A DNA stretch of 64,000 bases from the NCBI GenBank assembly GCA_963667975.1, contig OY764079.1, forward strand, positions 1,182,760-1,246,759. Direction: 5' to 3'. Positions 1 through 10,299 of this stretch are shown here, one piece after another. The position numbers and the translations under genes are program-made. The stretch's first letter is position 1. The number at the start of each line of letters is the position of its first letter. The notes beneath the pieces were generated by a model. The model saw only the letters and a program-made list of their open reading frames with translations. It ran no database searches and was not told the DNA's origin. The stretch comes from Bacteroidales bacterium. Lineage in GTDB: Bacteria; Bacteroidota; Bacteroidia; Bacteroidales; G963667975.

Positions 1-93
1 GCAGATAATGTTATTACTCGCTGGAATCAGATAAAGAGGATGATTTTGAAAATTATCCTCTTTATTGAAATTTTAATCTAAAAAGAATAAGTT

Positions 94-1422
94 ATGTATA
101 GAATAAATCCTTTCATTCATATTTATGAACGTGAAAATGTTAAAGCGCTTTTCAATACTCTCAATTTGAAAACATTGTATGCTTCACAGGAAATATACGA
201 CAAGATACTGACAGAGCCAACGGAACAATTATTAGAAGAAAATTTTTTAGTTTCTCCCGATTTCAACGCCTTGGGGTACTTTAATGAAAATTCCCCGAAA
301 CAAACAGACAATAGTATTTCAGTTGCCTATTTTTTACTTACTTCTGCGTGCAACTTCAAATGCAAATATTGCTTTGTAGAATCACGAATAGAAAAACACG
401 ATAATACTTTTATGTCAAATGAAACAGCAGAGAAGGGAATACAACTGCTAAATAGAAATGTTGAGAAGGAATACACAACTACTATTATTTTTTATGGTGG
501 CGAGCCTTTTTTGAATTTTGATGTTATGAAATACATTGTAAATAGGACACAGGAATTAGGAATGAATGTAAAATATAATGTAGTGTCCAATGGTAGCATA
601 ATGAATACTGAAATTATAGATTTCATAAAAAAGCACAAACTTGAAATAGGTATAAGCATTGATGGCTTAGAAAATACCAATGACGAAATGCGAATAGACA
701 GCAATAATAATGGCACATACAATAAAATAATTTCTACAATTTCCGAATTATCGCAAAATGAAATAAATTTTGGTGTGAGTTGTACCATTTCAAAACATAA
801 CATAGATAAAATAGACGAGATAGTTTCCATATTAGAACAATACAATATCAAAGGCATGGGTTATAATTTGCCTGCCGAGAATGGGAACATTATTGTTTCC
901 GAAGTCGAAAAACAAGTAATTGTAAAAAATCTATTAAAAGCTGAAGATATTATTTTTGAGAAACGTATTTTTGAAGAAAGAGTGATAAACAGGCGTTTAA
1001 AATCATTTGTAGAAAAAAAGAAATGGATTAAGGACTGTGCAGGATATGGTCACCAAATAGCAATAACTCCTAAAGGACAGGTTGGAGTTTGTCACGGACT
1101 TTGGCCTGATGAAATCAATCAAAAAGAGAATACATATTATGAACTTGATGTGAATTATGAGGGCAAAATAACCGAACACCCCATTTGGCAAGAATGGTTT
1201 AACCGAACACCTTTTAATATGCCTCAATGTTGGAATTGCGAAGCTATAAGTTTGTGTGGTGGTGGTTGTGCAAAAAATTCTTTCTTGCGTACAGGCAGTA
1301 TTTGGTATATAGACACCGATATTTGTATTCTAATGAAAGATGTTGTGCCTTGGTTAATTTGGAAATATTTTGACGTGAGAGTAAAAAATGAATTTTATAA
1401 TAACAAGCCAATGTCCGAATAG
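94..1422 (+). CDS. Radical SAM/SPASM-domain peptide maturase
   Basis: 442-aa ORF with a CxxxCxxC radical-SAM motif (SACNFKCKYC), a GGEPF motif and a C-terminal SPASM-type Cys cluster (CWNCEAISLCGGGCAKN). A Cys-rich small ORF follows 24 nt downstream. Confidence 0.85.
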   Translation: MYRINPFIHIYERENVKALFNTLNLKTLYASQEIYDKILTEPTEQLLEENFLVSPDFNALGYFNENSPKQTDNSISVAYFLLTSACNFKCKYCFVESRIEKHDNTFMSNETAEKGIQLLNRNVEKEYTTTIIFYGGEPFLNFDVMKYIVNRTQELGMNVKYNVVSNGSIMNTEIIDFIKKHKLEIGISIDGLENTNDEMRIDSNNNGTYNKIISTISELSQNEINFGVSCTISKHNIDKIDEIVSILEQYNIKGMGYNLPAENGNIIVSEVEKQVIVKNLLKAEDIIFEKRIFEERVINRRLKSFVEKKKWIKDCAGYGHQIAITPKGQVGVCHGLWPDEINQKENTYYELDVNYEGKITEHPIWQEWFNRTPFNMPQCWNCEAISLCGGGCAKNSFLRTGSIWYIDTDICILMKDVVPWLIWKYFDVRVKNEFYNNKPMSE

Positions 1423-1446
1423 GAGCGGACATAAAATAAAAATTAT

Positions 1447-1623
1447 ATGTATCTAAATAATGTTTCAGAAACTTTTTCTGATTTCTATTTAAGTAAAAAC
1501 GATATGTTTTTTACTGCTTATAATGGTTGTGCTTGCGGAGCTTGTGGAGCTTGTGGTTGTATCACAAATGAAAATACTCAAAGTATTGTGTGCAAAATAA
1601 ATGCTCAAAATATAAAAATATGA
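1447..1623 (+). CDS. Cys-rich RiPP precursor peptide candidate (58 aa, below ORF-track cutoff)
   Basis: Own translation: MYLNNVSETFSDFYLSKNDMFFTAYNGCACGACGACGCITNENTQSIVCKINAQNIKI. It sits directly after the rSAM/SPASM gene. Its TGA stop overlaps the ATG of the next gene (ATGA). Confidence 0.65.
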   Translation: MYLNNVSETFSDFYLSKNDMFFTAYNGCACGACGACGCITNENTQSIVCKINAQNIKI

Positions 1624-2009
1624 CTACTGCGCAGTGGTGGATTTCTATTATAGGAATGCTTATTACTATAATAGGCGTATTTTTTGCTGCAATTCAAGTG
1701 CATTTTCTAAGACAACAAATGCAAAAGCAAAATGATTGGAACAAAAAGAATGCTACATTTCTATATATAGAACAATGGATACAAAAGCATAAAGAAATAA
1801 ATGATAAAATTTTCAGTATAATGGCAAATGATAATTCTATTATCCACAAACCAGAATCTTTTTTGAAAGAAAATAAATTCAAAATATTTAATATTGTTTC
1901 CTATTTTGAGTATTTGGCGATAGGGATTAATGAAAACTATTTTGATGAAAAAGTATCAAAATTAATGCTTACAAATGTTGTGATTCAAACATTCAATACA
2001 TTACTTTGA
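1620..2009 (+). CDS. Single-pass membrane protein, paralog of 2114..2764 (function unknown)
   Basis: The ATG at 1620 gives MTTAQWWISIIGMLITIIGVFFAAIQ (a TM helix). The ORF-track start at 1590 is a GTG extension inside the precursor gene. It shares the YF(E/Q)(Y/I)LA(I/V)GI(N/E)E.YF.EK motif with the next ORF. Confidence 0.7.
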   Translation: MTTAQWWISIIGMLITIIGVFFAAIQVHFLRQQMQKQNDWNKKNATFLYIEQWIQKHKEINDKIFSIMANDNSIIHKPESFLKENKFKIFNIVSYFEYLAIGINENYFDEKVSKLMLTNVVIQTFNTLL

Positions 2010-2113
2010 ATACAGAAAAAATGAGACAGGGCGAGAAGTCGGATTCCATTTCCGTCAATTATCAGAAAAATGGATAAGAGAAAGTAGTAATATGAAATAG
2101 TAATTTTATTAAA

Positions 2114-8687: not shown

Positions 8688-8700
8688 CGATAAAAGCGGC

Positions 8701-8832
8701 ATATAACAGCAGCTACCCAAAAGTGGCGGTTCAGTGGTTAAATCAAGCTTTGTGCTTCTATCAAAGTTTGTGCTTTGTTGACAGTAAAGTGCTTCGAAAT
8801 CGCCACCTTCGGGTAGCTGCAAAACGTCAGAC
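8701..8832 (+). repeat. attC-like recombination site
   Basis: ATATAACAGCAGCTACCCAAAAGTGGCG pairs with CGCCACCTTCGGGTAGCTGC, followed by AAAACGTCAGAC (GTCAGAC at 8826-8832). Confidence 0.65.
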
Positions 8833-8946
8833 TGTCTAAAAACTAAATAATATCCTTCTGAGAATCGAGTATTTGTAATTTAATTCCATCAGGTATCCAA
8901 TATTATATTTGTAAATTTGAGGTTTTTAGACAGACTGTCGTTACCG
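8827..8946 (+). repeat. ORF-less 114-bp mini-cassette / attC-like element, copy 2
   Basis: Same element as 2925-3038 with 3 substitutions. It ends in GTTACCG (8940-8946). TAnnTTTG boxes lie at 8904-8919. Confidence 0.55.
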
Positions 8947-9061
8947 CCAAGCATGAAAACAGCGAAATGAGGAGATTAATCGGCATAATCTGGGCATATT
9001 TTGCGGAGAAAATACCATTTGCGGTGAATAAGTCGTATATTTGTCGCATAAAATGCGGAGA

Positions 9062-10195
9062 ATGAAAATTTATTTACACGAAAGAGAAAACTGGACTGAC
9101 TTCACTTGGGACAACAAAAAAGTGATGATAAAACTTGGTGAAGCTAGAAATCAACAAGGCAGGCTTCTTGGGAAAATGGAATCACTTGGATTTGACTTAC
9201 AAAATGAAGCAGTCTTAAATACACTGACATTAGACGTAATTAAATCATCTGAAATTGAAGGAGAATTCCTTGAAGTAGAACAGGTTCGTTCATCAATTGC
9301 AAGACGATTAGGAATTGATATTGCTGGTTCAGTGGAATCAGAACGTTATGTTGAAGGAGTAGTTGAAATGATGCTTGACGCTACGCAACGATATAATTTA
9401 CCTCTGACAAAAGATAGATTATTTGGTTGGCATGCCGCTTTGTTTCCATCAGGATGGAGTAATCTTTATAAAATTACCGTTGCTGATTGGCGAAAAGACA
9501 CAACAGGGCCAATGCAGGTTGTATCAGGACCAATGGGAAAAGAAAAAGTTCACTATCAAGCTCCCGATTCTGATAGAATTGAATTTGAAATGGAAAAATT
9601 CTTAAACTGGTTTGAAAACGAGCATGAAATAGATTTGGTTCTTAAAGCTGCTATTGCTCATTTATGGTTTGTGTCAATTCATCCTTTTGACGATGGAAAT
9701 GGTAGAATAACAAGAGCAATCACCGATATGGCATTAGCTCGTTCGGATAAAAGTGTTAGGCGATTTTATAGTATGTCTGCTCAAATTAGAGTTGAAAGAA
9801 AAGACTATTATGAGAAACTTGAAAAAGCTCAAAAAGGAAACTCTGATATCACAGAATGGATATTATGGTTTTTGCAATGTTTAATTAATGCAATTGATTC
9901 TACAGAAGAGACTTTGTCGAAAATACTTTATAAAGCTGAATTTTGGAAGTTACATTCTAAAACGATTTTTAATGAGAGGCAGCAAAAGATAATTAATCGA
10001 TTACTTGATGGATTTGATGGAAAGTTAACAACTTCAAAGTGGGGAAAAATTAATAAATGCTCCCAAGATACAGCTCTTAGAGATATTCAAGATTTAATAA
10101 AGAAAAATATTTTACAGAAAGAAGCAAGTGGAGGACGAAGTACAAATTATGAATTAAAAGAAATGCCAGGCGGTAACAATCTGTATATGTCATAG
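9062..10195 (+). CDS. Fic/DOC family protein (cassette cargo)
   Basis: Fic motif HPFDDGNGRITRAITD. An ATG at 9062 (MKIYLHERENWTDFTW) is preferred over the TTG at 9041. Confidence 0.8.
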   Translation: MKIYLHERENWTDFTWDNKKVMIKLGEARNQQGRLLGKMESLGFDLQNEAVLNTLTLDVIKSSEIEGEFLEVEQVRSSIARRLGIDIAGSVESERYVEGVVEMMLDATQRYNLPLTKDRLFGWHAALFPSGWSNLYKITVADWRKDTTGPMQVVSGPMGKEKVHYQAPDSDRIEFEMEKFLNWFENEHEIDLVLKAAIAHLWFVSIHPFDDGNGRITRAITDMALARSDKSVRRFYSMSAQIRVERKDYYEKLEKAQKGNSDITEWILWFLQCLINAIDSTEETLSKILYKAEFWKLHSKTIFNERQQKIINRLLDGFDGKLTTSKWGKINKCSQDTALRDIQDLIKKNILQKEASGGRSTNYELKEMPGGNNLYMS

Positions 10196-10299
10196 CCGGT
10201 TTTGTGGGTAATTGTAGGTTAATCTCCCGCATTCACTTCATCTCGGCTTGACAGGAAAGTAGCCCGCAGTCAGCTACGTCACACAGGTAAACGTTAGCA
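10172..10299 (+). repeat. attC-like recombination site (last of the array)
   Basis: GGTAACAATCTGTATATGTCATAGCCGG starts inside the 3' end of the Fic CDS and pairs with GTCACACAGGTAAACGTTAGCA (-10299). Minus-strand core genes lie downstream. Confidence 0.6.

Follow-up and report, generated by a model that had tools for sequence, protein, structure and literature searches.

A gene-cassette array at the left end of the window

We analysed a stretch of 64,000 nucleotides of the chromosome of a Bacteroidales bacterium (GenBank assembly GCA_963667975.1, contig OY764079.1, positions 1,182,760 to 1,246,759), referred to below as the window. Positions 1–10299 are the distal part of a Bacteroidota chromosomal gene-cassette array with an integron-like build. 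Only + strand genes lie in this region, co-oriented as an initial annotation of the DNA had stated, and they form nine or ten units. Every + strand open reading frame (ORF) or ORF group has at its 3′ side an imperfect inverted repeat of 58–140 bp (initially given as 55–130 bp). Most of these hairpins open with xxTAAC and close with (A/C)CGTTAxxx, and a typical site consists, in this order, of xxxTAAC, 1–3 nt, a stem of 10–23 bp, a variable centre, the return stem, 5–6 nt (often AAAAC) and GTTAxxx. The guanine-plus-cytosine (GC) content of the array is 0.30–0.40, against mostly 0.35–0.47 further right in the window, which bears out the AT-rich cargo described before. The cargo had also been called orphan-like, and this holds in part only, since Pfam matches were obtained for 7 of the 10 cassette proteins scanned. 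The array closes with a hairpin at 10299, beyond which lie unrelated minus-strand genes. No tyrosine recombinase was found among the window ORFs scanned, which included all those of at least 250 amino acids (aa), and an exact 40-mer of the window start had no match in metagenome contigs.

The units are described from left to right; all features of the array apart from the body of unit 6 are on the + strand, and scores in bits are those of the covariance model described below. The window edge cuts the first feature, the possible 3′ end of a preceding hairpin (1–16). Its box, GTTATTA at 10–16, is atypical in having T for C before the G and pairs at 3 of 7 positions with the opening box of site B, but it cannot be judged because the window starts there. 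Unit 1 (cargo span 17–2799) encodes a radical SAM/SPASM peptide maturase (94–1422), a Cys-rich 58-aa peptide with the run GCACGACGACGC (1447–1623) and two DUF4760 proteins (1590–2009 and 2114–2764). The maturase and the 58-aa peptide (94–1623) make a small pair resembling those for ribosomally synthesized and post-translationally modified peptides, here carried as cassette cargo. Relatives of the maturase with 81% and 79% identity were found by a genome scan in two Bacteroidia genomes, in larger clusters and other contexts, and both the hairpin motif and covariance-model matches were absent from those contexts (loci L001 and L002).

In hairpin site B (2800–2925; 40.4 bits), which follows, the opening box TCATAAC runs up to 2809, and an insertion divides the closing box, which continues as (G)TTATAC at 3038–3044. 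The ORF-less unit C (3040–3179) contains the hairpin GATAACGTCAAAA...TTTTGACGTTAGTC at 3083–3179, which was missed by the covariance model. A 175-nt repeat, 95% identical between 3017–3191 and 51181–51355, comprises the tail of that insertion and unit C; the copy at 51181–51355 is remote from the array and sits a little upstream of the ORF at 51373–52293, so unit C is not array-specific. Unit 3 (3180–3818) encodes a 202-aa protein (3210–3818) with a weak DUF3157 match. The left part of site D (3827–3944) is atypical and was also missed by the model; its opening box TGCTAAC lies at 3827–3833, and 3843–3856 pairs with 3928–3941 in the folded stem. The closing box of site D, GTTAGCG at 4625–4631, is the start of unit 4 and matches the opening box of site E at 7 of 7 positions.

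Unit 4 (4632–5813) encodes an FRG-domain protein (4699–5742) that matches the candidate defence family PDC-S15, and ends in hairpin site E (5814–5943; 53 bits), also supported by the pairing test described below. Unit 5 (5944–6646) encodes a 230-aa protein (5960–6652) without a family match and is followed by the short hairpin site F0, 58 bp in length (6647–6704; GGCTAAT ... GTTGAAC), supported by its fold. The opening box of F0 pairs at 7 of 7 positions with the closing box before it, and the closing box of F0 pairs at 6 of 7 with site F. No convincing ORF was found on either strand of the body of unit 6 (6705–7162), which ends in hairpin site F (7163–7295; GTTCAAC ... GTTAGTA; 50 bits; pairing test).

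The 172-aa protein of unit 7 (cargo span 7296–7882; gene 7320–7838), which like that of unit 5 belongs to no family, has homologs in other arrays. Its database copy, P0001, is 186 aa long (7278–7838) and starts 42 nt upstream of the ATG at 7320, inside the preceding site; this deposited start is probably wrong, because most homologs have 168–176 aa. Hairpin site G (7883–8014; 81 bits) has perfect arms of 23 bp at 7892–7914 and 7979–8001, exactly as had been reported for 7884–8014. Unit 8 (8015–8700) encodes a WapI-like immunity protein (8048–8458) and, as its small partner, a 78-aa ORF (8451–8687). The closing box of hairpin site H (8701–8827; 78 bits; pairing test) is split by a second insertion and continues as (G)TTACCG at 8940–8946. 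Unit 9 (8947–10170) encodes a DUF4172-Fic protein (9062–10195) that matches the PADLOC SoFic defence model, and hairpin site I (10171–10299; 44 bits; pairing test) is the last of the array.

Insertions in the recombination sites

The insertions in sites B and H are two 114-bp copies of a miniature inverted-repeat transposable element (MITE), at 2926–3039 and 8828–8941, both on the + strand and both inserted at ACGT^ of the closing box. The second copy has 3 mismatches to the first, whose boundary is ambiguous by the triplet CGT, and the terminal inverted repeats (CAGACTGTCTAAAAAC / GTTTTTAGACAAACTG) are 16 bp long. When the copies were excised in silico, normal closing boxes were restored, ...GGACGTTATAC at site B and ...CAAAACGTTACCG at site H. 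In the related locus L088 (13342–13496) the same MITE terminus follows the same target, ...GCAAAACGT^, and leads into the start of a transposase-like ORF (MKFIEGKNRDQLVLIPTSLD), of which the first 20 codons are visible. Because a relative that begins a transposase is inserted at the same target, the 114-bp copies are taken as MITEs of a site-targeting insertion sequence. That the MITE might be a tiny cassette was considered and rejected: its left junction is G|TC and not G|TT, terminal inverted repeats of 16 bp are present, and a full-length copy that carries the start of a transposase occupies the same target. Insertion sequences of the IS1111-attC group lie at a fixed place in integron attC sites, and the insertion sequence and the MITE found here likewise occupy a fixed place in the sites. 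The window also carries an IS4/IS5-family transposase gene (49401–50225; DUF4096 and DDE_Tnp_1), which does not share the termini of the MITE.

Site D contains a group II intron that has no ORF and runs in the sense of the cassettes, at about 3945–4615 (5′ boundary approximate). It was matched by RF01999 at 4000–4117 (102 bits) and by RF00029, domains V/VI, at 4540–4615 (63 bits). A 15-nt near-direct repeat (3834–3848 / 4609–4624) flanks the stem of site D together with the intron. Group IIC-attC introns also sit at a fixed place in a recombination site, but they insert into the bottom strand, antisense to the cassettes (PMC3001079). The window intron is in the sense orientation on the top strand and does not show these features, while a group II intron at the end of the array in L082 is on the minus strand (antisense). 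The array is colonised by site-targeting parasites, namely the two MITE copies and the ORF-less group II intron.

These insertions account for part of the initial list of closing boxes. The GTCAGAC entries (2924 and 8826) represent the left ends of the two MITE copies, and GTTTCAT at 3935 is in the stem beside the intron, the real junction box of that unit being GTTAGCG at 4625. One junction, GTTGAAC at 6698, had been omitted; it is supported on both sides by pairing. It had also been noted that sequence identity between duplicated units stops at the boxes. This is true, but its cause is the insertion of the MITE at closing boxes.

Structure of the sites

A covariance model was built from 17 full-length sites of the window and loci L080–L082, so that matches to these sites are circular. 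When the window was scanned, E≤1e-7 was reached only at 2800–2934, 5811–5946, 7160–7298, 7880–8017, 8698–8836 and 10168–10302, all on the + strand and all training sites of the model. The top window site scored 81 bits in the forward direction and 14 bits on the other strand. Nothing better than E=0.2 was found at 10.3–64 kb of the window, and nothing at E<0.5 in 79 unrelated loci (1.2 Mb). In the loci collected earlier, sites that had not been used for training were found by the model only inside arrays. Thus the generic scatter of the same repeats through intergenic regions, which the initial annotation had named as evidence that would speak against it, was not seen in the window; strong matches were confined to the array and to one strand. 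Within the window, the sequence scanned here, the dispersed copies in both orientations that characterize repetitive extragenic palindromes (REP) or bacterial interspersed mosaic elements (BIME) were not found. The hairpin sites themselves had no match in Rfam. A covariance model made from trimmed "mini-sites" gave no matches, being unable to span the long variable centres, and was replaced by the full-length model. A loose hairpin scanner was dropped, as it returned as many matches in shuffled sequence as in the window; a stricter version served only to pick candidates.

For an analysis of covariation, 63 sites from about 30 contigs were aligned by fitting them to the model, which somewhat favours pairing. 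In this alignment 84% of the stem cells were paired, compared with 63% in shuffles and 24–35% in slid controls, and 195 double changes were counted against 62 in shuffles. (T/C)AAC and CGTT were nearly invariant. The spacer after TAAC was 1 nt long in 61 of the 63 sites and the spacer before GTT 5 nt in 58, with surplus bases on the R′/L′ arm. Among the mismatches, 63 were A·C on the top strand, which become G·T wobbles in the bottom-strand fold, against 21 top-strand G·T. With DNA parameters the bottom strand was the more stable one in 47 of 58 sites (p = 2e-7). Because of the wobble bias and the higher stability of the bottom strand, the folded bottom strand is likely to be the substrate, as in integrons.

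The sites share with attC sites the imperfect palindrome, outer boxes of the form RYYYAAC / GTTRRRY and a variable centre. The geometry between the boxes is different. In canonical attC sites the unpaired spacers are of roughly equal length, 5 and 6 nt, and the extrahelical bases belong to the R′′/L′′ arm, as in the aadA attC site and in the structure of VchIntIA with its Vibrio cholerae repeat (VCR), whereas the sites analysed here have spacers of 1 and 5 nt and carry the surplus bases on the R′/L′ arm. The R′′/R′ architecture of attC that was initially proposed therefore stands for the conserved outer boxes and variable centres and not for the spacers and the arm. When folding of the bottom strands, which had been suggested as a check, was carried out, the bottom strand folded better than the top strand, but the canonical unpaired spacer and R′′/L′′ extrahelical bases were not seen.

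Cassette junctions and polarity

If cassette circles are inserted by a crossover within the closing-box GTT, whatever follows GTT is part of the next cassette and should pair with the next opening box, not with that of the same hairpin. In the pairing test, the reverse complement of each opening box was compared with closing boxes at 7 variable positions, using 19 sites from the window, L080 and L082. On average 5.8 of 7 positions paired with the previous closing box, 2.9 with the site's own closing box and 2.75 in unrelated pairs. The observed pairing total was reached by none of 100000 permutations. In the window, six of the nine sites, the consecutive sites E, F0, F, G, H and I, paired at 6–7 of 7 positions with the previous closing box. 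Homologs of cassette 7 with 82–85% protein identity were found on small contigs, and their DNA resembled that of the window between the GTTAG box and the closing GTT but differed beyond these limits. Cassette junctions are in the GTT of the closing box.

Because the pairing test is symmetric, it does not give the polarity of the cassettes. The opposite polarity, with the crossover at the opening box and the recombinase to the right, was rejected, as the window array ends in the hairpin at 10299 with no recombinase after it, and related arrays start hairpin-free beside a recombinase. For the same reason the integration site is placed to the left, and the initial expectation of an attI site and recombinase to the left of position 1, drawn from cassette orientation, is supported by the ends of the arrays.

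Related arrays and an attI-like site

A homolog of the unit 7 protein (34% identity) was found on the 457-kb metagenomic contig L080. There, an array of co-oriented small ORFs, including several toxin-antitoxin pairs, lies directly downstream of a co-oriented gene for a 374-aa tyrosine recombinase, and its intergenic sites have the same build as those of the window. Two more recombinase lineages, about 60% identical to the L080 protein, showed the same layout. The recombinase-headed array of L082 contains a site (14109–14246) with about 95% identity to site H, located after another gene.

At the recombinase end, related arrays have no hairpin and show a single box beside the recombinase gene. 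The motif TATATATAAGTTA / TATATATAAG^TTA, in general form TATA(T/A)A(A/G)TAAG^TTA, heads the recombinase-linked arrays. TATATATAAGTTA occurs once per locus in six recombinase loci (three distinct arrays), in none of 80 other loci and nowhere in the window. In L080 and L082 the pairing test matched the bases after the G of the motif to the opening box of the first cassette; in L088 the variant box TAAGTAAGTTATGGGTAA pairs likewise with the first cassette, as read from the sequence. Like attI, the motif of the relatives lies beside the recombinase at the start of the first cassette, and it is an attI-like site. A gene with a Bro-N domain lies between the recombinase and the attI-like site in L082 (11151–11978) and L085 (11149–11619), not in L080; its product could be an accessory factor.

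To assess generality, metagenome contigs were scanned with the recombinase alignment, which yielded 80 loci with 41–72% identity. The covariance model gave 45 matches at E≤0.1 in these loci, of which 44 were on the recombinase strand. Of the 45 matches, 43 were downstream of the recombinase gene, 42 of these on its strand (p about 9e-21; downstream sequence made up 131 kb of 443 kb of total flanks, or 30%). A site match was present in 22 of the 33 loci having at least 1 kb of downstream sequence. Another 34 contigs stop within 400 bp after the recombinase gene, as expected, because assemblies break on repeats. In L097 two good + strand matches (8006–8143 and 9173–9310) lie upstream of the recombinase gene (10001–11071) and six downstream, and this recombinase may lie inside or between arrays.

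These results bear on the view that the hairpins are generic intergenic repeats of the REP/BIME type, or terminators, with no role in mobility. Stable hairpins at gene 3′ ends would fit this view, and so would the hairpin unit that recurs at 51181–51355 and a solitary look-alike at 18157–18246. However, the model found no matches in the other 54 kb of the window or in the 1.2 Mb of unrelated loci, all sites point the same way, each outer box pairs with the site before it and not with its own, cassette homology stops at the boxes, and the sites are tightly linked to one recombinase family. We give almost no credence to it.

The recombinase family

The recombinases heading the related arrays have 374–377 aa and a mean column identity of 77–78% over the whole length, and the catalytic residues are invariant. 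Integron integrases are defined by an additional domain of about 35 residues near patch III, represented by the intI_Cterm profile (Messier & Roy 2001; Cury et al. 2016, PMC4889954). The integron integrase model TIGR02249 scored 207–213 bits with the family, below its cut-off of 265, and the match was split at model position ~179. The only cut-off reached was that of NF040815 (221–224 bits; cut-off 220), a XerA-type model named "site-specific tyrosine recombinase/integron integrase". When the 374-aa recombinase was aligned to VchIntIA (2A3V), VchIntIA residues ~210–242, where the IntI-specific domain lies, had no counterpart. The additional domain was thus absent from the recombinases tested, those that head related arrays. 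An AlphaFold model (mean predicted local distance difference test score 82) contained an extra, confidently folded alpha/beta domain at residues 1–95, and its best matches among solved structures were XerA (5HXY, 4A8E), followed by IntI4.

As the associated recombinase is Xer-like, the units might be regarded as Xer/dif-type modules moved by the housekeeping XerC/XerD, like the pdif modules of Acinetobacter plasmids. We consider this very improbable. The sites are one-orientation hairpins of 58–140 bp with conserved outer boxes, and not dif-like sites of about 28 bp (two 11-bp arms and a 6-bp spacer) in alternating orientation. In L085, moreover, a separate Xer gene of 300 aa adjoins the 374-aa gene, and the 374-aa protein is for this reason a dedicated paralog and not the housekeeping Xer.

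An ordinary sedentary chromosomal integron, with a true IntI and attI just left of the window and a lineage-specific attC family, would agree with the RYYYAAC / GTTRRRY boxes, the circular-permutation signature of the junctions, the better fold of the bottom strand and the typical cargo (Fic, an immunity protein and candidate defence genes). Reviews also name Bacteroidota, without a description, among the phyla in which integrons have been detected (PMC9668308, PMC8618304). Nevertheless, all readable related arrays start beside an IntI-like recombinase without the insertion, site H is common to the window and the recombinase-headed L082 array, and spacers of 1 and 5 nt are unlike those of canonical attC sites. 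In the survey with IntegronFinder 2.0, nothing but In0 elements was seen in complete genomes of Bacteroidetes, apart from one complete integron of Salinibacter ruber (PMC9024848). We therefore regard an ordinary integron as unlikely. Of the initial reading as an integron array, the mobile cassettes bounded by GTT remain; membership of the integron family is not supported, given the related recombinases without the IntI domain, the spacer geometry and the boxes that belong to the MITE and the intron.

An AraC-type regulator (30726–31646) is encoded outside the array; its ligand-binding half matches GyrI-like proteins and PF14526 (Cass2, "integron-associated effector binding protein").

Remainder of the window

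Beyond the array the window is ordinary Bacteroidota chromosome, with tRNA-Glu, a subtilase that bears a type IX secretion sorting domain, genes for lipopolysaccharide and a restriction-modification island. The solitary hairpin at 18157–18246, GGCTAACGTT...AACGTTAGTT, has array-like boxes without the spacer asymmetry and is not detected by the covariance model. It lies between a GNAT acetyltransferase gene (17520–18083) and a low-GC island at 18.4–22.8 kb that carries genes for a helix-turn-helix protein, a DNA methylase, an AIPR protein and a TdeIII restriction enzyme. Tandem 165-nt repeats at 42146–43559 (55-aa units, 62–88% identical) lie within an ORF of 1233 aa (41798–45499), which has no Pfam match and follows two genes resembling those of the sulfatase-activating formylglycine-generating enzyme.

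Discussion

We consider it probable that the array is an integron-like capture system of Bacteroidota, in which hairpin-site cassettes are served by a Xer/IntI-like recombinase of 374–377 aa without the IntI insertion, with an attI-like site to the left. In this system a tyrosine recombinase acting on the folded bottom strand would excise cassettes as circles and insert them. New cassettes would enter at TATA(T/A)A(A/G)TAAG^TTA, directly downstream of a recombinase gene co-oriented with the cassettes, which would place the recombinase gene of the source genome to the left of the window. The predicted enzyme would be of the conserved Xer/IntI-like family, having all catalytic residues and an extra N-terminal alpha/beta domain of about 95 residues but lacking the IntI insertion.

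Several points weigh against this proposal. We infer recombination, strand choice and cleavage position from sequence, and the matches of the covariance model to its own training sites carry no independent weight. The recombinase and attI of the source genome lie beyond the left edge of the window and were not seen, and among the best 120 of several thousand relatives of two family members, no protein came from the source chromosome. In units 1–3 the sites (B, C and D) fail the pairing test with 3 of 7 positions each, and no partner boxes for them were found elsewhere in the window. Finally, in L169 the first position after an attI-like box (2100–2130; CTATAACTAAG|TTAGCACTC), which is preceded by an unannotated 217-aa ORF, is taken by a close relative of cassette 7, and no recombinase was found in the approximately 2 kb of contig upstream of that site, so that arrays without an adjacent recombinase exist.

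The last two of these points would suit an orphan array, comparable to attC-site clusters that have no integron integrase (CALIN), that holds cassettes of the same system without an adjacent recombinase and is either static or acted on in trans; decay, as suggested by the insertions of the MITE and the intron, would suit it as well, and so would the lack of a family member from the source chromosome. We think this improbable, as six consecutive junctions are intact and most related arrays are recombinase-headed, and an absence among the best 120 of several thousand relatives means little.

The capture system proposed here resembles the sedentary chromosomal integrons, such as the V. cholerae superintegron with VchIntIA, attIA and VCR-type attC sites, in many respects. 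In both, co-oriented and mostly promoter-less cassettes end in palindromes of the RYYYAAC / GTTRRRY type, junctions lie in GTT, and the hybrid outer box pairs with the start of its own cassette. Structure is conserved over sequence, the bottom strand folds better, and a simple attI lies beside the recombinase. The cargo is rich in toxin, immunity and defence genes, and the same site "type" recurs across cassettes and genomes. The differences are as follows. The recombinase here lacks the IntI domain of about 35 residues, which contacts the extrahelical bases, and has an N-terminal domain of about 95 residues; the spacers are 1 and 5 nt long instead of about 5 and 6 nt with R′′/L′′ extrahelical bases; the recombinase is co-oriented with the cassettes, with attI after its 3′ end; and the host phylum is almost without known complete integrons. 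On the tests made on relatives, the recombinase without an IntI domain and the other site geometry, the system is distinct from integrons as defined.

An integrase transcribed in the direction of the cassettes is also known from the inverted-integrase integrons of the Treponema denticola group (Cury et al. 2016, PMC4889954), but the Treponema integrases are true IntI with the additional domain. Archaeal XerA and bacterial XerC/XerD are closest to the recombinase core in sequence and fold and likewise have no insertion in the catalytic domain. However, Xer recombinases resolve chromosome dimers at one short double-stranded dif site, and have neither hairpin arrays nor the extra N-terminal domain. 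In a large survey, tyrosine recombinases without the IntI domain near attC sites were judged not to be integron integrases (PMC4889954). We found no paper describing this recombinase family together with these arrays, in a literature search of incomplete coverage.

We lean slightly towards the wider view that these arrays represent a widespread, previously undescribed sister system to integrons in Bacteroidota, whose recombinase never gained, or lost, the IntI domain, and which may instead rely on its N-terminal domain, on hairpins with 1-nt and 5-nt spacers, and on an attI after its own gene. If so, folded single-strand cassette capture would not need the IntI-specific domain, and this raises the questions of how structure-specific recombination evolved from Xer-type enzymes and what reads strand identity if it is the other arm that carries the surplus bases. 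Abundant cassette platforms of its own would then exist in a major phylum; they would be invisible to integrase-based integron searches and would have been missed by current tools or filed as orphan arrays. The arrays point to a large accessory gene pool of the Bacteroidota, including toxin, immunity, defence and peptide-maturation genes.

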